Shown: piece after piece, positions 10,573 through 52,468 of the stretch | Position numbering within the stretch: position 1 is the stretch's first letter | How the letters are laid out: each line of letters starts with the position of its first letter | Notes under the pieces: generated by a model | What the model saw: the letters and a program-made list of their open reading frames with translations, nothing else | What the model was told of the DNA's origin: nothing | The model's database searches: none | Program-made: the position numbers and the translations under genes | Assembly (NCBI GenBank): GCA_963557965.1 | Contig: CAUWEX010000006.1 | Location: forward strand, 3 to 64,002 | Length of the DNA stretch: 64,000 nt | DNA from: an uncultured Clostridia bacterium | GTDB taxonomy: Bacteria; Bacillota; Clostridia; TANB77; CAG-508 | Direction: 5' to 3'

Positions 10573-11019
10573 ATGGAAACAGGAACACCATATTCAACAA
10601 TGCTTAGTAAATTATACTATAGCGAAACAAAAGAAGGGGAGAAAAAACAAGTAGCTTGGGTACAAGAAATTCCTGAGTTTGACCCAGCACCAGAAGGAAT
10701 AGAATTTAATGCATTAGATACAGATTATACAGGACAAGTTCCTGGAAGGAGAAAAGCAGATGCTATTCCAATTCCTGTATTATTTACTGAGCAACAACAT
10801 GATACATTAAAAGCATTAGACAAGACAAAAGATTACTATTGGTTTATTTTATTGCCAGAAGAAACAGCAACTTCATCAAGCAAACCACTATGCTTTTATT
10901 TCCAAGCCAAAATGAGACTTGGAATGAATGCATTAGCAGTAGATGAAATGTTACAAGAAACTTTAACATTATATAAATCTACAGCTGTTGAAGAAAATAA
11001 AGGCTTACCCACAGCCTAG
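10573..11019 (+). CDS. Major tail protein
   Basis: 148 aa with a strong SD (AAGGAGG). Followed by a terminator and then the G/T chaperone pair. Confidence 0.6.
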   Translation: METGTPYSTMLSKLYYSETKEGEKKQVAWVQEIPEFDPAPEGIEFNALDTDYTGQVPGRRKADAIPIPVLFTEQQHDTLKALDKTKDYYWFILLPEETATSSSKPLCFYFQAKMRLGMNALAVDEMLQETLTLYKSTAVEENKGLPTA

Positions 11020-11119: not shown

Positions 11120-11569
11120 ATGATATTAGAAACAAATAATAAAAAAATAAATTTAGTACTAAGAACAAGAAAAATAGCAGATATTGCTAAAAAATTAGAG
11201 GGAAAAAACTTTGAAGATGTTTACTTTAAAGCTATGAATGAGTTTGATTTAGATGCTTTAAGTAAAATAATATACATATTAGCAGAAAATGAAGATAAAA
11301 CAAATGCTTTTAAAAATAGCACAGAAGTATATGACTTTATAGATGATTATATGGCAGAAAATAATAAAACATATAAAGATATATTCCAAGAGATAGCAGA
11401 GGATATAAACGAAGAGGGTTTTTTCAACAGCAAAATGACGAAGGAAGAATTAAAAGACAAGATGTCAAATCCTTTATCGTCAATGAATATGAACGATGTT
11501 ATAAAGAGCTCAGCAGAAAAAGCAATAAGCAAAGTAGCAGAAGAACAGTTTCAAGGATACAGAGCTTAG
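11120..11569 (+). CDS. Tail assembly chaperone (gpG-like)
   Basis: 149-aa acidic protein between the major tail gene and the T-like ORF. The -1 frame is open from 11377 through 11919. Confidence 0.65.
   Translation: MILETNNKKINLVLRTRKIADIAKKLEGKNFEDVYFKAMNEFDLDALSKIIYILAENEDKTNAFKNSTEVYDFIDDYMAENNKTYKDIFQEIAEDINEEGFFNSKMTKEELKDKMSNPLSSMNMNDVIKSSAEKAISKVAEEQFQGYRA
11419..11425 (+). promoter_or_regulatory. Candidate -1 slippery heptamer U UUU UUC in phase with gpG
   Basis: gag ggT TTT TTC aac in the G frame. The -1 frame continues without a stop into ORF 11653-11919. Confidence 0.4.
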
Positions 11570-11652
11570 AAGATATAACAGATAATATTAAAGCAACAAA
11601 AACACTAAAAGAACTTATTTTTGCATTAGAGCCATTAGCATATTACTTCAAT

Positions 11653-11919
11653 ATGAAACCAGAAGAATTTTGGAACAGTGAATATAGAGCGATTAATTTG
11701 TTTTTGCAGACTAATATGACAAAAATATTAGATGATTTTAAAATACAAATAGTATTACAAGAAGCGGTCACAGATAAATTAATAAAAGCGGACAGTATGA
11801 GTAAAAGACCAAAAGTAGTTCCGCTAAAGAAAATGTTTGCTAAACTATTTCCTAAAGAGAAAAAAACGAAATATCAATCTCCTGAAGAACAAATTGCAAG
11901 ATTGAGAAAACTAAAATAA
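11653..11919 (+). CDS. Tail assembly chaperone, gpT-like portion (probably made only as a G-T fusion)
   Basis: Lies in the -1 frame relative to G. The upstream in-frame sequence SLEDITDNIKATKTLKELIFALEPLAYYFN looks coding. Contains KPEEFW... Confidence 0.55.
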   Translation: MKPEEFWNSEYRAINLFLQTNMTKILDDFKIQIVLQEAVTDKLIKADSMSKRPKVVPLKKMFAKLFPKEKKTKYQSPEEQIARLRKLK

Positions 11920-11922
11920 GTA

Positions 11923-11951
11923 TTGCATAATTTGTAAAATAATGGTATTAT
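11923..11951 (+). promoter_or_regulatory. Sigma-A-type promoter (TTGCAT-17-TATTAT)
   Basis: TTGCAT 11923-11928, 17-nt spacer, TATTAT 11946-11951. Upstream of the Zn-ribbon gene. Confidence 0.45.
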
Positions 11952-11971
11952 TTTATCGGAGGGGATTAATT

Positions 11972-12259
11972 ATGAAATGTCCAAATTGTGGTAGCGAAAA
12001 TGTTCAAGTTCAACTTGTTGAAGCAGGACAACAAACCAGCAAAAAAGGTGTTGGATTTGGAGGAAGAATGAATAATACAGCTAGAGGGTTCACAGCTCTT
12101 TGTACATTAGGATTTTCCAACTTATTTTGGAAAAAATCTAAAGGAACAAACAAAACAAAAACAATAAATTCAACTATGGGGATTTGTCAAAATTGTGGCA
12201 ATACATGGGTAATAAACAAAGGAAAGCTCGGAAAAGCACCTACAAGTATATTTAGATAA
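11972..12259 (+). CDS. Double zinc-ribbon protein with a short hydrophobic centre
   Basis: MKCPNCGS...(hydrophobic GFTALCTLGFSNLFW)...CQNCGN. GGAGGGG SD before ATG 11972. Confidence 0.5.
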   Translation: MKCPNCGSENVQVQLVEAGQQTSKKGVGFGGRMNNTARGFTALCTLGFSNLFWKKSKGTNKTKTINSTMGICQNCGNTWVINKGKLGKAPTSIFR

Positions 12260-12361
12260 CTACTTCAGTGCAATAATGTACAGAAGCAATAAGAAAACAC
12301 ACATTACAGATATGTAGTGTGTTTTTATTTTGAAAAAATAAAAAAGATTTTAAAATACCTC

Positions 12362-12390
12362 TTGACATTTGTATCACACTACTATATAAT
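12362..12390 (+). promoter_or_regulatory. Perfect consensus sigma-A promoter (TTGACA-17-TATAAT) inside the late operon
   Basis: TTGACA 12362-12367, exactly 17 nt, TATAAT 12385-12390. Confidence 0.65.
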
Positions 12391-12412
12391 GATAGCACGA
12401 TACAGTTAGGAG

Positions 12413-12595
12413 GTGTTTAAAATAGAAAATAAAAGTAGAGCCGAATATTTTAGAGAAAGAAGAAAAACAAGAAAAGCATTTAATGTATTATTACCAAAAG
12501 AGAAATACGATGACATAGATAAAACATTAAAACAAAAAAATAAAACTAAAACAGAATGGCTCATAGAAAAAATTGATGAAGAAATAAAAAAATAG
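12413..12595 (+). CDS. Small ribbon-helix-helix-like DNA-binding protein
   Basis: ...RAEYFRERRKTRKAFNVLLPKEKYDDIDKTLKQKNKTKTEWLIEKI. The start is uncertain: the GTG abuts AGGAGG, and an in-frame ATA at 12422 has better spacing. Confidence 0.45.
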   Translation: MFKIENKSRAEYFRERRKTRKAFNVLLPKEKYDDIDKTLKQKNKTKTEWLIEKIDEEIKK

Positions 12596-12723
12596 AGAGA
12601 TAACCTGCTAAGTTTTGGCGAACAGCACAGATTATCTCACAAGTAAGAATTTTAGTTCCTACAAATATATTGTATCATAGTAGGGACCGAAATTCAAGTA
12701 AAACTGAAGGAGGTCTTTTTATT

Positions 12724-13056
12724 ATGCAAGAAAGAGAAAAAATAAAACAAATTTATAAGAAAAATAATGTAAGAGTAAGTGAAGATTATATTGACGATAT
12801 CATGAACAATGAAGAAAGAGTTAAGTCTTTTATGAGGATGTATAAACAAGAAGAAATATGGAGTATGAACGAAATCTTAGGAAAGCCATATAACAATTTA
12901 GTTTTTACTAAATTTGAATTAAAGGCTTGTTCAAAAATAGACTTGTTTGATAGGGCACAAATTAAATGGTGCAAACTATTTTGGAAAAATAGAAATAATG
13001 AAGAAATTTATCAAGAATTGCAAAATGCACTAAATGAAAGAAGGTGTATGAAATAG
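12724..13056 (+). CDS. Hypothetical protein (111 aa)
   Basis: GAAGGAGG SD then ATG 12724 (MQEREKIKQIYKK...). Overlaps the next gene by 13 nt. Confidence 0.5.
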   Translation: MQEREKIKQIYKKNNVRVSEDYIDDIMNNEERVKSFMRMYKQEEIWSMNEILGKPYNNLVFTKFELKACSKIDLFDRAQIKWCKLFWKNRNNEEIYQELQNALNERRCMK

Positions 13057-13685
13057 GAAAGATAAAAGATATTACAAACCAAAGATTTGGAAAATTTATA
13101 GCCTTAAAATATAAATACTGTAAAAAGGGAGAAGGAGCTATGTGGGAATGTATCTGTGATTGTGGAAAAACAGCGATTGTATCTGGACATAATTTAAGAT
13201 TAGGGAGAATAAAAAGTTGTGGTTGCTTAAAACATGAAACGGCTCCACATACGATACATAATTTAAGCAATACTAAAATATATAATGCTTATTGTGCGAT
13301 GATACAAAGGTGCTACAACGAAAATAATAAAAACTATAAAGATTATGGAGGCAGAGGAATAAAAATTTGTGATGAATGGTTACAAGATTTTATGAATTTT
13401 TATAATTGGGCAATTAATAATGGATATAATGAAAAATTAACAATCGATAGAGTGGATAACAATAGAGGGTATGAGCCTAATAATTGTAGATGGGTTACAA
13501 TGAAAGTTCAATCTATGAATAGAAGAAACAACTTAAAATTCAAATATAAAGGAAAAGAAAGAACGGTTAAAGAATTAGCAAATATAGCTGGGATTACTGA
13601 AAAACAATTTAGGCACAGACTAGAAAGAGGTTGGAGTATATTCAGAATCATAAATACACCAATTAATGCAAGTAAAAGAAAATAA
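13044..13685 (+). CDS. Phage-associated Cys-cluster / HNH-like (DRVDN...N) DNA-binding protein
   Basis: WECICDCGK...SCGC cluster. YGGRGIKICDEW and LTIDRVDNNRGYEPNNCRWVTMKVQSMN. C-terminal HTH-like ELANIAGITEKQFRHRLERGWS. Confidence 0.55.
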   Translation: MYEIGKIKDITNQRFGKFIALKYKYCKKGEGAMWECICDCGKTAIVSGHNLRLGRIKSCGCLKHETAPHTIHNLSNTKIYNAYCAMIQRCYNENNKNYKDYGGRGIKICDEWLQDFMNFYNWAINNGYNEKLTIDRVDNNRGYEPNNCRWVTMKVQSMNRRNNLKFKYKGKERTVKELANIAGITEKQFRHRLERGWSIFRIINTPINASKRK

Positions 13686-13729
13686 GTTTAATTTTCCTTA
13701 TTTAGAAGGAAGAGAGGAAGGTAGAAGAT

Positions 13730-14623
13730 ATGAAAGAACTAACAGAGTTCAACATAGAAAAAACAACAGCAGAAATTCTTATACTAAAAGACCAAACAGC
13801 ACAAAATATAATAGAAATAGGTAAAAGGCTTATAGAAGTTAAAAAAAATTTAGAGCATGGGGAATTTACAAAATGGTTAGAGGAAAGAATAGATATAAGT
13901 CATAGAACAGCAAATAATTTTATGAAGGTTGCAAAAACTTTTTCAAATTCGCAATCGATTGCGAATTTAGGAAGTACAAAATTATTTCTTCTAGCGGGAC
14001 TTGATGAAGAAGATAGACAAAAATTAATACAAGAAAATAATGTAGAAGATATGACAACAAGAGAATTAGAACAAGTAGTAAGAGAAAAGAAAGAAATAAC
14101 AAAACAATTAAAAATAGAACAAGAATATTCAAACGAACTACAAGAATCAATCAAAGAAAAAGAAAATCAAATAAGAACTTTACAAAATGAAATAGAAAAG
14201 ATCCAAGTACCGGAAAAAGAAATAATTGAAAAAGAAGTTGTTAAAGAAGTAGTTCCACAAAAACTAATTTTAGAAAAACAAGCATTAGAAAAAGAACTTG
14301 AAACATTAAGAAAAAGAGCAGAAAAAGCAGAAAACACTTTAAGTAGAATAAAACTAGATAAAGAAATAAACCAAGATAAAGTATACAGCAATACAAAATT
14401 AGAACATTTACTTGTAAATATAAAAGATTTTCTTGATAATGCTTCAAAATATACTTACTTGAAAGATGAATTGCAAAAAATACCAACTCAAAATAAAAAA
14501 ATATTAGAAAGCAAAATTAATGAGGTAGAAAGTTGGACGATGTTAATGAAGCAAGCATTAAGAAATGAAGAAAATATGGTTGGAAATATAATCTTTGGAG
14601 AAGGAGAGATAATAAATGAGTGA
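13730..14623 (+). CDS. DUF3102-domain protein with a long coiled coil
   Basis: IIEIGKRLIEVKKNLEHGEFTKWLEERIDISHRTANNFMKVAKTF matches my memory of DUF3102. The remainder is E/K-rich coiled coil. Confidence 0.65.
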   Translation: MKELTEFNIEKTTAEILILKDQTAQNIIEIGKRLIEVKKNLEHGEFTKWLEERIDISHRTANNFMKVAKTFSNSQSIANLGSTKLFLLAGLDEEDRQKLIQENNVEDMTTRELEQVVREKKEITKQLKIEQEYSNELQESIKEKENQIRTLQNEIEKIQVPEKEIIEKEVVKEVVPQKLILEKQALEKELETLRKRAEKAENTLSRIKLDKEINQDKVYSNTKLEHLLVNIKDFLDNASKYTYLKDELQKIPTQNKKILESKINEVESWTMLMKQALRNEENMVGNIIFGEGEIINE

Positions 14624-15071
14624 TATGATATTAAAAGAAAATAAAGGAATTGAACAAAAAAGTAAAGGATTAGATATAAATGATTTAATAAAAGGGCTTA
14701 CAGAAAGCCAAACAGTAATGAATTATGCCTTTGCAGGATTTAAAACTGAAACAGAACAAAAATTTCAGGAAGTAGATAATAGATTACAAGAACATGACGA
14801 AATAATTAAAAAGAAAATATATTTAAGTTCAAATAAAGCTAGATTATTTAGAAAAGCAGTAAAAGAGAAAGTTAAATTAATATGTGAAGAAAATAAACTT
14901 GAATATCATCAAATGAAATCTAAAATATTTCCTAGAATATATGGAAAAATAAATGACCAATATGGAGTAGCAACATATAGAGAATTACCTGAATATTTTT
15001 GGGACGATATTTTAGAAAGCTTAAGAAATATTATAATCAATGTAAATGATTTAAAAAATCAAGTAGCATAG
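14616..15071 (+). CDS. ORF6C-like domain protein (antirepressor-associated family)
   Basis: Overlaps the upstream gene by 8 nt. C-terminal ...IFPRIYGKINDQYGVATYRELPEYFWDDILESL resembles the ORF6C domain. Confidence 0.45.
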   Translation: MSDMILKENKGIEQKSKGLDINDLIKGLTESQTVMNYAFAGFKTETEQKFQEVDNRLQEHDEIIKKKIYLSSNKARLFRKAVKEKVKLICEENKLEYHQMKSKIFPRIYGKINDQYGVATYRELPEYFWDDILESLRNIIINVNDLKNQVA

Positions 15072-15076
15072 AAATT

Positions 15077-15099
15077 AGCACCAATTTATGGTGCTTTTA
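15077..15099 (+). terminator. Rho-independent terminator closing the inserted block
   Basis: AGCACCA-attta-TGGTGCT followed by TTT. Confidence 0.6.
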
Positions 15100-15115
15100 T
15101 TATACCTGAAAAGAG

Positions 15116-51611: not shown

Positions 51612-52382
51612 TTGGTAACAATTAAATCAAAAAAAGAAATAGAATATATGAAAGAAGCGTGCAGAGTAGTTGCAGTAATGTATCAAGAATTGGAAAAAGC
51701 AATCAAACCAGGAATGTCAACATGGGATGTTGACCAATTGGCAGAAAAAATAATAAGAAGAGAAGGTGCTATTCCAGCCGAAAAAGGTTATCCATCAGGA
51801 ATAAGAGGTGTACCTAATTTTCCAGCTTCAATTTGTATATCTATTAATGATGAAGTAATTCATGGAGTACCTTCAAAACATAAATATATAAAAGAAGGAG
51901 ACATAGTAAGTGTAGACACAGTAGCTCTAAAAAATGGTTTTAATGGAGATGCTGCAAGAACATTTATGATAGGAAATGTTTCAAAAGATGCAAGAAAACT
52001 AGTAGAAGTAACTAAACAAGCATTTTTTGAAGGAATAAAATATGCAAAACCAGGAAATAGAATTGGAGATGTATGTCATGCAATAGGTGAATATGTACAT
52101 TCTCAGGGATATTCTGTCGTAAGAGAATTTCAAGGTCATGGAATAGGAAGACAAATGCATGAAGATCCAGGAATACCAAACTATGGAAAAGCAGGAAGAG
52201 GAATAAGATTAGAACCAGGAATGACATTAGCTATAGAACCTATGGTAATTCAAGGAAAACCAAATATTTTAGAATTAGAAGATGGATGGACAATAATAAC
52301 AGAAGATGGAAGTTTGGCGGCACATTATGAAAATACAATATTAATTACAGAAAAAGAGCCAGAGATATTGACAATTCTATAA
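51612..52382 (+). CDS. map: Methionine aminopeptidase type I
   Basis: TTG start. ...[14 protein letters not shown]...[18 protein letters not shown]...[12 protein letters not shown]...LAIEPM... Confidence 0.94.
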
Positions 52383-52468
52383 TAGTAATGTATAATAAAA
52401 TAGTTATTATGCACAATAGCCCAATTTTGCATAAAAATGTAAAACTCTTTAATAGGAGGGGAAGAAAG

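Follow-up and report, generated by a model that had tools for sequence, protein, structure and literature searches.

A variable cargo site in the tail operon

What are six genes with promoters and terminators of their own doing between two tail genes of a prophage? The prophage comes from a gut Clostridia bacterium and was analysed within a stretch of 64,000 nucleotides (64 kb), here called the window. Its interval between the chaperone extension T and the tape measure gene holds six plus-strand ORFs (b1-b6), two promoters and two terminators. A first-pass annotation had described the interval as a single self-promoted six-gene block. All the features that it listed were found in place or within a few bases, but the single block is in fact two independent cassettes with a later HNH insertion.

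11120-11569, + strand: tail assembly chaperone gene G (phrog_183, E 9e-9; DUF6096/Phage_TAC_12)
11653-11919, + strand: T extension, in a frame open over 11377-11919 and -1 relative to G; left border of the variable site
11923-12332: cassette 1, with a promoter, a Zn-ribbon gene and a terminator
12347-15103: cassette 2, with a promoter and two operator-like sites, an RHH-like gene, an antisense RNA gene, b3, the DUF3102 and ORF6C genes and a terminator
15116-17788, + strand: tail tape measure gene (phrog_1535, E 6e-90); right border of the variable site

The T frame stays open from 11377 past the stop codon of G, which matches the need of a -1 frameshift. With the tape measure gene 42 related loci were found, and G and T are conserved in 41 related loci. 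The gap between T and the tape measure gene ranges from 17 bp to 3.7 kb among 40 related prophages, and its differing contents come from at least 12 gene families. Related phages lacking the insert, as the first-pass annotation anticipated, do exist: the closest relatives (L002 and L011) carry other cargo between flanks with 80% DNA identity, and two loci are nearly gapless, with the two genes spaced 17 bp (L016) and 31 bp (L032) apart. A hairpin with a T-run before the tape measure gene accompanies cargo and is missing from the two cargo-free loci. Other cargo at the site includes membrane, TM2, SHOCT and DUF5067 proteins and, in L003, an Mrr-type nuclease matching PADLOC PDC-S02 and ZorD; some of it (the membrane proteins and the nuclease) looks like exclusion or defence genes.

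The cassettes of the window have relatives of different ages. In L025, b3, b5 and b6 are 88-95% identical in amino acids to those of the window and the flanks only 41-62%, which indicates recent transfer. L105 keeps the order b1-b2-b3-b5-b6 at 36-61% identity, similar to the identity of its flanks, which indicates old co-inheritance. Comparison of these loci establishes the cargo status of the interval and its mosaic structure. The 3.2 kb between T and the tape measure gene is, on this comparative evidence, a hot spot for accessory cassettes (morons), with two in tandem here, and the block is a composite of these two cassettes and a separately inserted HNH-like gene. The earlier reading as accessory, moron-type cargo is borne out, since a variable site with its own promoters and terminators is what defines a moron. 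We also agree that none of the six proteins looks structural and that they match no named defence system, with no hit among the PADLOC models.

Cassette 1

11923-11951, + strand: promoter P1, TTGCAT-17-TATTAT, with an extended -10 (TGgTATTAT)
11972-12259 (ORF start at 11942 or 11972), + strand: b1, 95 aa, with two CxxC..CxxC zinc ribbons and weak Zn-ribbon Pfam matches
12299-12332, + strand: terminator T1, a hairpin at 12299-12322 with a 10-bp stem, followed by a T-run; closes cassette 1

Although the -35 of P1 is weak (3/6), the promoter proposed in the first-pass annotation appears real. It has the extended -10, the element is conserved ahead of three different cargo genes (in the window, L002 and L010), and DNA homology between the window and L002 passes through it as far as 11966. 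The ATG of b1 at 11972 is preceded by the Shine-Dalgarno sequence GGAGGGG. A hydrophobic centre had been ascribed to b1, but its best 19-residue Kyte-Doolittle mean is 0.52, too weak for a membrane helix, and b1 is probably a soluble zinc-ribbon protein. In L026 (80% identity), L015, L033 and L042 it occupies this site by itself. T1 is homologous to a hairpin directly 5' of the tape measure gene in L011, L002 and L003.

Control region of cassette 2

12362-12390, + strand: promoter P2, a perfect TTGACA-17-TATAAT
12370-12382: operator-like site O1, TGTATCACACTAC, within the P2 spacer
12391-12405: operator-like site O2, GATAGCACGATACAG, directly 3' of the P2 -10
12413-12595, + strand: b2, an RHH-like small DNA-binding protein of 57-60 aa (PHROG 3896; phrog_3896, E 3e-24)
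12586-12663, - strand: predicted antisense small RNA of ~78 nt, unannotated, complementary to the b2-b3 intercistronic RNA and the last b2 codons
12597-12638, - strand: hairpin of the antisense RNA terminator, followed by a U-run
12669-12697, - strand: antisense promoter TTGAAT-17-TACAAT, with an extended -10 (TGaTACAAT), in the loop of a second inverted repeat

P2 is the sole 12/12 consensus match in 13 kb, and the whole window holds two such matches against 0.05 expected. A promoter of the form TTGAC[AT]-17-TAnnnT is found at the equivalent position upstream of b2-family genes, in 28 of the 30 distinct regions. The O1 and O2 sites of the window are imperfect copies that share only a 6-nt inverted repeat. 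Across the family, a locus-specific site of ~12 nt (consensus TGTAGnnnnCTACA) occurs in two copies at the O1/O2 positions, and repeats of at least 9 nt are present there in 57% of b2-family loci compared to 0.7% of shuffles. The site changes with the RHH type, being TGGAACTC twice in L025 and TGACGTCA twice in L044, and each of three RHH types has its own repeat.

The GTG at 12413, listed earlier as the start of a 60-aa ORF, lies inside the gene's own Shine-Dalgarno sequence, so b2 probably starts a few codons downstream, near 12422. Its 49 viral relatives share an invariant SRAEYFRERRK arm followed by a strand-helix-GKT-helix pattern. b2 aligns in register with P22 Arc (hhalign E 0.0016, probability 16%), and a profile search of the PDB returned no match; RHH-like thus describes the sequence pattern of b2 and not an established fold. 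The genes at the b2 position in L025 and L044 match repressor and Arc-like PHROGs. We propose that b2 is the autorepressor of P2, and we infer that it binds O1 and O2.

The predicted antisense RNA is supported by several strand-specific features. In the window the hairpin stem has G.U pairs on the minus strand only, and transition mismatches across the family give 20 G.U pairs on the minus strand versus 2 on the plus strand. An A-run lies upstream of the hairpin in 19/28 sequences and a T-run downstream in 0/28, and the minus-strand fold is the more stable one in 21/21. The region 12596-12723 folds well (-33.9 kcal/mol, z = -3.7), with no match among Rfam families. A minus-strand extended -10 is present at the equivalent position in 24 of 33 distinct family regions versus 3 on the plus strand (shuffle control: mean 1.5, maximum 5). 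The antisense promoter and the strand-specific terminator are conserved by comparison, and from them we infer that the RNA is made and acts. It would leave ~46 nt between its near end and the b3 ribosome-binding site uncovered, and its mode of action cannot be exactly that of sar on ant.

The combination of promoter, operators, RHH gene and antisense unit recurs in >50 phage loci. It usually drives antirepressor-type genes within head or tail operons (Bro-N+KilAC or AntA genes in at least 15 loci), and L079 and L085 have the cassette between the genes for the minor head protein and the scaffold. Comparison of these loci shows that the promoter, the operators, the small regulator gene, the antisense promoter and the strand-specific terminator are conserved across them. 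The first-pass annotation had taken consensus promoters in a late operon to imply expression from the repressed prophage. However, P2 carries two operator-like repeats, and it is followed by a small gene of repressor type and a predicted convergent antisense RNA gene. Conservation of this arrangement in dozens of loci suggests that P2 is kept under tight self-limitation, in the manner of P22 immI, and is not constitutive.

Payload of cassette 2 and the HNH-like insertion

12724-13056 (ORF start at 12670 or 12724), + strand: b3, 110 aa, all-helical
13044-13685, + strand: b4, 213-aa HNH-like protein with a Cys cluster, a DRVDN..N motif and a C-terminal helix-turn-helix-like tail
13730-14623, + strand: b5, 297-aa DUF3102 protein (PF11300, E 3e-25)
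14616-15071, + strand: b6, 151-aa ORF6C-domain protein (PF10552, 22.5 bits; antirepressor PHROGs 373 and 463)
15077-15103, + strand: terminator T2, a hairpin at 15077-15095 with a 7-bp stem, followed by a T-rich tail; closes cassette 2

Judged by its AlphaFold model (pLDDT 91.9), b3 is a small novel-fold protein: a structure search of PDB and BFVD found no structural neighbour, and its 101 homologues are all unnamed and carry no Pfam domains. It is present in L025 (88%), L105, L039, L063, L049 and L014. The next gene, b4, matches the phage HNH family phrog_374 (E 2e-72) and has no match in Pfam, HNH models included. In L025 window positions 13073-13698 are replaced by 54 bp between flanks of 88-89% identity, b4 is also absent from L105 and L044, and L039 has a 44%-identical copy between b2 and b3. 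By these comparisons b4 is a separately inserted later gene outside the cassette 2 circuit, and it is probably mobile. Its nuclease activity is uncertain, with DRVDN standing where HNH enzymes carry the catalytic His.

In the AlphaFold model of b5 (pLDDT 80.5), a helical domain at the N-terminus leads into a long coiled coil. The sole compact Foldseek matches are 4umk_C, 1vz0 and 6y93_B (probability 0.94-0.99, rmsd 2.7-3.3, E 0.4-1.1); the modelled N-domain resembles the ParB/Spo0J/Noc DNA-binding domain, with poor structural E-values. b5 has >500 close homologues. Three papers were found to mention DUF3102, none of them dealing with its function, and it has no studied member. The score of b6 lies barely above the PF10552 cut-off of 22. 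b6 begins 8 nt before b5 ends and never occurs without b5 as its partner; the two are adjacent in L019, L025, L044-L049, L051-L056 and L105. Streptococcus phage Javan642 likewise has an overlapping DUF3102-ORF6C pair after cro, with the ORF6C gene annotated as antirepressor, and DUF3102 with ORF6C is an antirepressor-annotated early-operon pair of streptococcal prophages. For Bro-N/KilAC, AntA and ORF6C alike, "antirepressor" is annotation by family name. These parallels point to an antirepressor-like role of b5/b6, and the earlier description of the encoded domains as early and antirepressor-associated holds for this pair.

T2 ends ~15 nt ahead of the Shine-Dalgarno sequence of the tape measure gene, and hairpins of the T2 family precede that gene in L011, L019 and L033. 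Late transcription would have to get past both T1 and T2, an observation that speaks against a P22-like reading.

Proposed function and alternatives

We estimate a probability of about 0.5 that cassette 2 is analogous to the immI "ant moron" of P22 and makes a DNA-binding antirepressor-type effector in a short burst that limits itself. The near-perfect sigma-70 promoter P2 would fire once the DNA is repressor-free, at entry or induction. The first product, the small RHH-type b2, would bind the two sites bracketing the -10 and shut P2 again, and the convergent ~78-nt RNA could further restrict the downstream genes through pairing with the sense transcript or transcriptional collision. The payload made in this short burst would be the small helical b3 and the products of the overlapping DUF3102 and ORF6C genes, and it may target transcriptional control, of its own prophage or another, in antirepressor fashion. 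T2 and autorepression would guard against mistimed transcription of the tape measure and later tail genes from the strong P2. The HNH-like b4 would be a selfish later insertion with no part in the circuit. Among the three functions offered in the first-pass annotation, a cross-regulatory module fits best; superinfection exclusion and anti-phage activity are without direct support for these six genes.

The same wiring (strong promoter, paired repeats around the -10, small repressor gene, structural-operon setting) would suit an acr-aca-type anti-defence locus, with host-immunity inhibitors (b3, perhaps b5/b6) made in an immediate burst on entry and then shut off. b3 and the position-equivalent genes of 69-100 aa are small, variable and without known folds, and the L079/L085 cassette occupies what we take to be the equivalent of the anti-CRISPR locus site in Mu-like Pseudomonas phages. 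We nevertheless consider this explanation unlikely: the constant payload of the family (Bro-N/KilAC, AntA or DUF3102+ORF6C) is of the DNA-binding regulator type, DUF3102+ORF6C occurs after cro in streptococcal early operons, and we know of no counterpart of the antisense RNA in known acr loci. Rather doubtful, too, is that the cassettes are lysogenic-conversion or defence cargo, transcribed in the lysogen and protecting it by superinfection exclusion or abortive infection. The defence-like cargo of relatives, the cassettes' own promoters and terminators, and sieA of P22 in the same kind of moron (PMC2629481) would fit, and cassette 1, with no visible repressor, could be constitutive. On the other hand, the six proteins match no PADLOC model and b1 lacks a membrane segment, and cassette 2 has a self-repressing architecture and effector families that occur in early lytic operons.

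A selfish element, in which the HNH endonuclease homes into the T/tape-measure junction and drags its neighbours along with no benefit to phage or host, would account for the membership of b4 in a large phage HNH family, for its presence or absence between nearly identical flanks and for related copies at differing places near b2-type cassettes (L039, L069, L073, L078, L098). The rest of cassette 2 occurs without the HNH gene in L025, L105, L019, L044-L049 and L051-L056, though, which makes b4 a passenger and not the driver. As the spread of the cassette is also largely uncorrelated with b4 and the activity of b4 is itself in doubt, we regard this as very improbable. We give even less credence to b5/b6 being accessory tail-assembly or virion proteins that adjoin the tape measure gene because they work with it. 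Three unrelated backbones do have the DUF3102-ORF6C pair next to that gene, between it and the major tail gene, but neither the closest relatives nor most of the 42 related loci carry the pair. It also comes with a promoter, repressor and terminator of its own, recurs in the Javan642 early operon and includes, in b5, a modelled fold of DNA-binding type.

Comparison with known systems

The pair of Javan642 (MK449002) is built like that of the window: its gene 0011 product is 35% identical to b5 over 172 residues, the next gene, 0012, encodes an ORF6C-domain protein, and the overlap between them is 8 nt, the same as between b5 and b6. The ORF6C proteins are not alignable by BLASTP, and the Javan642 pair belongs to the early operon, where it immediately follows a Cro-type gene, whereas that of the window lies in a separate tail-operon cassette. 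In the Aca autorepressor anti-CRISPR operons of Pseudomonas Mu-like phages, a strong early promoter carries repeats bound by a small autorepressor. Like cassette 2, these operons lie inside a structural operon, and repression shields downstream late genes from untimely transcription. Cassette 2 differs in having the regulator gene first, a predicted antisense RNA and a payload of DNA-binding regulator type, and we know of no Acr homology in it.

The morons of lambdoid and HK97-like phages are units of promoter, gene and terminator that have been inserted among the late genes (Hendrix and colleagues, cited in PMC2629481). They share with the block the presence or absence between conserved neighbours and the own promoter and terminator and, as with them, the closest relatives of the window differ in the insert only. 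A classic moron is usually one gene that is expressed in the prophage state, whereas the five genes of cassette 2 form a unit that has negative control built in. In the immI of P1/P7 the c4 antisense RNA controls icd-ant, and Gifsy prophages have trans-acting antirepressors (PMC3121763). As proposed for cassette 2, an RNA or dedicated repressor restrains antirepressor expression, and these antirepressors are able to act on other prophages in the same cell. The regulators (processed c4 RNA in P1/P7, LexA in Gifsy) and genomic positions differ, with no homology.

The closest parallel to the proposed circuit is P22, in which mnt, arc, the sar antisense RNA, ant and sieA form a variable late-operon "ant moron" (PMC2629481). 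There is no detectable sequence homology to Arc, sar or Ant beyond the weak in-register Arc profile match, and no Mnt-like second repressor is found in the window. The P22 region lies upstream of the tailspike gene, whereas cassette 2 occurs in Firmicutes siphoviruses at the T/tape-measure or head-protein/scaffold position. Additionally, the predicted RNA, unlike sar, leaves the ribosome-binding site of the next gene uncovered, and the payload, unlike that of P22, is DUF3102+ORF6C with a novel small protein. In both, however, a variable and independently transcribed insert within the late operon has a strong promoter whose first gene encodes a ~55-aa RHH-type repressor of that promoter (putative in cassette 2), a small convergent antisense RNA (predicted in cassette 2) starting between cistrons and ending at the 3' end of the repressor gene, and an antirepressor-class payload downstream. 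Both also have many alternative versions in related phages, with exclusion-type cargo at the same site. Cassette 2, wired like the P22 "second immunity region", would be a known kind of element in a new form, one that is widespread among Firmicutes phages.

Composite structure of the cargo block

The first-pass annotation described the DNA between the tail chaperone extension gene T and the tape measure gene as a single, self-promoted moron block of six genes. Its status as moron-type cargo stands, but its unity does not. By sequence comparison the block is a composite of cassette 1 (promoter P1, the Zn-ribbon gene b1 and terminator T1, all signals being predicted), cassette 2 (promoter P2, the genes b2 to b6 and terminator T2) and an inserted HNH-like gene, b4. 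Within cassette 2, b2 encodes an RHH-like protein, b3 a small helical protein, b5 a DUF3102 protein and b6 an ORF6C protein.

Features of the prophage and its surroundings
2000-3400 (terminase) to 24793-25557 (amidase lysin): prophage late region
10573-11019, + strand: major tail protein
11120-11569, + strand: tail chaperone G
11653-11919, + strand: T, in the -1 frame, open from 11377 through the G stop
11923-12332, + strand: cassette 1
12347-15103, + strand: cassette 2
15116-17788, + strand: tape measure gene, 3' of the six cargo ORFs
28.5-31.4 kb: host genes beyond the prophage, agr-type quorum-sensing set
From 40 kb: host genes beyond the prophage, ribosomal-protein-sized ORFs

Every feature listed at first pass is present in the sequence. 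The perfect TTGACA-17-TATAAT of P2 (12362-12390) is the sole 12/12 promoter match in 13 kb, and two such matches occur in the whole window against 0.05 expected. The other lies in the host region at 52368-52396 (+), beside ribosomal-protein-sized genes. The TTGCAT-17-TATTAT of P1 at 11923 is a weaker promoter with an extended -10, and terminator-like hairpins with T-runs are found at 12299-12322 and 15077-15095. Two details were corrected. The 'hydrophobic centre' ascribed to the Zn-ribbon protein contains no segment hydrophobic enough for a membrane helix, and b1 was rejected as a membrane protein on this hydropathy. In addition, the GTG start listed for the 60-aa ORF (b2) sits within that ORF's own ribosome-binding site.

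The cassette borders were set by DNA comparison with relatives. Homology between the window and the related locus L002 runs up to 11966 and resumes from 15095, and in L011 a hairpin homologous to 12299-12346 sits immediately before the tape measure gene. The simplest history would be an arrangement of T, one cargo gene, a terminator and the tape measure gene, with 12347-15086 added later behind the first terminator. b1 is found alone at the site in L026 (80% identity), L015, L033 and L042. Over b3, b5, b6 and the tape measure gene's first 190 nt, L025 is 88-89% identical to the window in DNA while its structural genes are only ~69-78% identical, which indicates recent transfer. The viral contig L105 shares the backbone of the window and, at 36-61% protein identity, its gene order b1, b2, b3, b5, b6, with no HNH gene. 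Its cargo has diverged about as much as its flanks, so the gene combination is also old in one sub-lineage.

In L025, 54 bp take the place of 13073-13698 of the window, with 88-89% identity to either side, and this missing segment coincides exactly with the HNH-like gene. b4 alone is present or absent between homologous flanks, a pattern expected of free-standing homing endonuclease genes, and its first-pass domain call is upheld by a match to the large phage family phrog_374 'HNH endonuclease' (E 2e-72). Pfam HNH models gave no match to b4 at E below 0.1. The motif reads IDRVDNNRGYEPNNCRW, in which DRVDN has Asp-Arg at the position of His-His in HNH_3 enzymes. Movement of the whole block with the HNH gene was considered and rejected, as the cassettes of L025 and L105 lack b4.

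A cargo hot spot between T and the tape measure gene

Scanning species-representative genomes with the tape measure protein gave 42 related prophages, all from uncultured gut Clostridia, and the T-to-tape-measure gap was measured in the 40 where both genes could be placed. The gap ranges from 17 bp (L016) and 31 bp (L032) up to 3.7 kb (L039 and L040). The two short-gap loci have the canonical layout expected at first pass and are the insert-free relatives that had been sought, and L002 and L011 carry different cargo between flanks that are 80% DNA-identical to those of the window. The commonest cargo is a single membrane-like protein of ~200 aa (16 loci). Further cargo includes SHOCT/DUF4429, DUF5067 and TM2-domain proteins and an Mrr-type nuclease, and some loci have Bro-N/KilAC antirepressor-type genes immediately 5' of the tape measure gene. 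The nuclease, a 315-aa protein with an Mrr_cat domain (L003, 9030-9977), matches the PADLOC model PDC-S02 (E 1e-16) and the nuclease end of ZorD (E 5e-24), so the hot spot carries defence-like genes in some phages. A different 2.4-kb insert is found at the same site in bajarodcaudo virus 4, the nearest deposited phage, with a tape measure identity of only 39%; in a megablast search of 50,697 phage records, 10.5-18 kb had no match.

A strong hairpin with a T-run lies 15-30 nt before the tape measure ribosome-binding site in nearly all cargo loci and in neither of the two cargo-free loci, and most related loci have a promoter-like element directly 3' of the T stop. The cargo is present or absent between the same conserved neighbours, and the predicted P1, P2, T1 and T2 are conserved with it. 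Such variable cargo with its own predicted promoters and terminators fits the classical moron definition. Flanking direct or inverted repeats, which would mark a transposon or integrative element, were looked for without result.

In most related prophages, the first ~75 nt past the T stop contain, before the first cargo gene, a tandem repeat TTCGACA-N3-5-TTCGACA, followed after 11-25 nt by an extended -10 (TGnTATAAT or TGnTATACT). The repeat is found in L008, L009, L011, L015, L017, L020, L021, L024, L025, L027, L028, L033-L036 and L041-L043; the window, L002 and L010 have TTGCAT-17-TGgTATTAT instead. The repeat element looks like a promoter controlled by a repeat-binding factor.

The DNA of the window is of low GC content (~29%) and represents a chromosome of Clostridia type. 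A tRNA gene (930-1002, +, 67 bits) lies within the prophage, upstream of the terminase genes, and the window does not include the prophage's CI-type repressor. Just past the lysin gene is a skipping-rope RNA (Rfam RF02924, 63 bits, E 8e-13; 25956-26039, +), adjoined by a minus-strand gene for a PBECR3 (barnase/EndoU/RelE-like) nuclease at 26071-26496. The run of genes at 27298-31442 starts with a YhgA-like transposase/nuclease gene (27298-28353) and continues with agrB, a GHKL histidine kinase and a LytTR response regulator; it probably marks the right prophage end at ~26-28 kb. A second variable site is the interval between the tape measure and Dit genes, which spans 2-9 kb in L009, L016, L039 and L040 and <10 bp in many others. 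In the window (17793-18303) it holds two ORFs that match no family, one of 67 aa on the plus strand and one of 106 aa on the minus strand.

Promoter, operator-like sites and first gene of cassette 2

For b2, the first gene of cassette 2 (60 aa, PHROG 3896, 'unknown function'), IMG/VR contigs contain 49 relatives, and a TTGAC[AT]-17-TAnnnT promoter is found immediately 5' of the b2-family gene in 28 of 30 distinct upstream sequences. A locus-specific site of ~12 nt, typically TGTAGnnnnCTACA, occurs there twice, once in the -35/-10 spacer and once just past the -10. A paired repeat of at least 9 nt is present in 57% of cases, compared with 0.7% of shuffles; the two copies in the window, TGTATCACACTAC and GATAGCACGATACAG, are less perfect. 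Homologous cassettes with another first gene have another repeat at the same two positions. In L025, the first gene encodes a 57-aa protein matching the repressor family phrog_876 and the site is TGGAACTC, present twice, and in L044 a 44-aa protein with weak matches to Arc-like/repressor PHROGs goes with two copies of the palindrome TGACGTCA. Regulator type and sites co-vary, as would follow from binding of the sites by the first gene product. Three regulator and operator specificity types on one chassis resemble heteroimmune variants, a hint that recognition among co-resident phages is of importance.

An invariant SRAEYFRERRK arm characterises the b2 family; after it, the sequence pattern is strand, helix, G-K-T turn and second helix. 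hhalign places the family in register with P22 Arc at low confidence (E 0.0016, probability 16%; Arc sequence entered by hand), and a search of PDB sequences with the family profile gave no match. An RHH fold is likely for b2, supported by this pattern, the weak Arc alignment and the repressor-PHROG matches of position-equivalent genes. In L105 (5537-5761) and L071, a second small repressor-type gene of the L025 type lies upstream of the b2-type gene, ~470 nt upstream in L071. These tandem RHH-like genes are reminiscent of mnt and arc; the window has a single RHH-like gene.

A candidate antisense RNA

The position of the two hairpins at 12600-12700 is conserved across very different sequences, and the hairpins appear to encode an antisense RNA:

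12697-12669, - strand: predicted antisense promoter TTGAAT-17-(TGa)TACAAT
~12663 to ~12586, - strand: predicted antisense RNA, ~78 nt

On the minus strand, the loop of the second hairpin contains an extended -10 (TGnTAnnnT, at least 5/6 to TATAAT) in 24 of 33 distinct family regions; its distance from the stop codon is 75-90 nt in every case, and a TTGnnn -35 is found at 17-18 nt. On the plus strand, 3 of these regions have an extended -10 (shuffles: mean 1.5, maximum 5). The first hairpin begins directly after the b2 stop codon and has a T-run only when read on the minus strand (A-run upstream in 19/28, T-run downstream in 0/28). The sequences proved too divergent for alignment, MAFFT and RNAalifold yielding no consensus for 18 candidates, and wobble pairs were instead counted by strand, anchored on the stem. 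Non-Watson-Crick positions of the first hairpin are G.U on the minus strand in 20 cases and on the plus strand in 2, and in all 21 sequences the minus-strand RNA has a more stable fold than its complement.

The predicted RNA is complementary to the b2-b3 intercistronic transcript, its end falling ~46 nt short of the b3 ribosome-binding site. The hairpin region matched no Rfam family, whether at gathering or at relaxed thresholds, and the RNA is a candidate for a new small-RNA family. The 16-20-nt loop of the antisense terminator hairpin (12597-12638 in the window) contains CCAAG or CAAAG on the plus strand, YTTGG on the minus strand. This semi-conserved motif is kept in very diverged loci (the window, L039, L061, L073, L079 and L105) and may be a recognition loop for RNA-RNA pairing.

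Payload of the cassette

The b2-type chassis precedes more than one payload. At least 15 loci (e.g., L057 and L079) have a 69-100-aa ORF followed by a 234-285-aa Bro-N+KilAC protein, and L066 has an AntA-domain protein. In the window, L105, L025 and the L044 group, the payload is DUF3102 followed by ORF6C with an 8-nt overlap, preceded by b3 in the first three and by unrelated small ORFs in L044. The first-pass domain calls hold for both genes: b5 scores 89.2 bits for DUF3102 (PF11300, E 3e-25; Pfam cut-off 24.4) and b6 lies just over the cut-off for ORF6C (PF10552, 22.5 bits against 22), the latter call being supported by matches to the antirepressor PHROGs 373 and 463.

The two genes are always adjacent, and gut metagenomes contain >500 homologues of the pair at 77-97% identity. 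Two further, unrelated phage backbones have it between the major tail and tape measure genes: L049 and a common HK97/ClpP-type prophage whose tape measure protein has 1115 aa. Prophages of cultured streptococci (Javan642) have an overlapping DUF3102-ORF6C pair in the early operon, directly after a Cro-type gene, and the ORF6C member in Javan642 is annotated as antirepressor; BLASTP gave no alignment between this protein and b6, and the link rests on Pfam only.

The AlphaFold model of b5 (pLDDT 80.5) has a six-helix N-terminal domain and a long coiled coil. Compact Foldseek matches were obtained only to the DNA-binding domains of Spo0J/ParB and Noc (probability 0.94-0.99, rmsd 2.7-3.3 A over ~100-117 columns, E 0.4-1.1); the list for full-length b5, mostly coiled-coil/BAR matches, was discarded as meaningless. 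b3 is confidently modelled as six helices (pLDDT 91.9), with no structural neighbours in PDB or BFVD and no relatives in the scan of viral contigs. Sequence searches of PDB with b4, b5 and b6 gave nothing usable, and literature searches on DUF3102, ORF6C and 'ant moron' returned no functional study of either family.

Function and comparison with known systems

We read cassette 2 as an analogue of the immI 'ant moron' of phage P22, with a probability of about one half. The cassette would then produce a self-limiting burst of a DNA-binding effector upon entry or induction, with T2 and autorepression shielding the tape measure gene from the strong P2. A more far-reaching reading, which we consider unlikely, takes the promoter/operator, RHH gene and antisense RNA as a portable 'early-burst' chassis of many Firmicutes phages, in three or more specificity types that each have their own matching operators. 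The payload (b3, whose fold has no neighbour, and the DUF3102/ORF6C pair) would be a new class of inter-phage weapon, waking or disarming rival prophages or satellites via their DNA or repressors, or blocking host defence, and the RNA a new widespread phage family absent from Rfam. The regulation also resembles that of acr-aca loci, and an anti-defence role of this kind seems to us quite doubtful. Slightly less probable still is that cassette 2 is a defence module expressed from the prophage, which fits cassette 1 and other cargo at the site better. PADLOC-DB v2 gave no credible match for the six proteins, only 16-17-bit fragments, in agreement with the first-pass remark that the gene combination was not recognised as any named defence system.

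Reading cassette 2 as an immI analogue suggests testable roles for the uncharacterised DUF3102 and PHROG 3896 families and for a novel-fold protein (b3). The chassis is exchanged between phages with structural genes only 40-60% identical, and the T/tape-measure site is a defined hot spot for exchangeable gut-prophage cargo, defence-like genes included. Should the effectors act on other prophages in trans, they would affect prophage co-induction in the gut.

Textbook second immunity regions combine an Arc-type repressor with an antisense RNA and an antirepressor, and those known come mainly from P22-like and P1-like enterobacterial phages. The P22 region, described as an 'ant moron', comprises mnt, arc, sar and ant, has sieA in its vicinity and exists in ten versions among sixteen genomes (PMC2629481). 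Trans-acting antirepressors that couple prophages are documented in other systems (PMC3121763). Five features shared with P22 immI lead us to read cassette 2 as its analogue: a strong promoter, a small first gene (Arc in P22, the probably RHH-type b2 here) with operators (operator-like sites here) on that promoter, a small RNA (predicted here from sequence) that runs convergently out of the intercistronic region between repressor and antirepressor, antirepressor-class genes downstream, and late-operon insertion at a site that varies between relatives. Unlike in P22, the payload (DUF3102 and ORF6C) is not homologous to Ant, the RNA has no homology to sar and would be unable to mask the next ribosome-binding site, and no minus-strand or second, Mnt-type repressor gene is found in 11.9-15.1 kb of the window. 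By its payload and the missing Mnt-type gene, cassette 2 is not a member of the P22 family. Collectively, cassette 2 is not a new principle but a widespread, undescribed regulatory cassette with a candidate new small RNA; unrelated components would here reproduce the logic of immI, inside tail or head operons at >50 loci in phages of gut Firmicutes.
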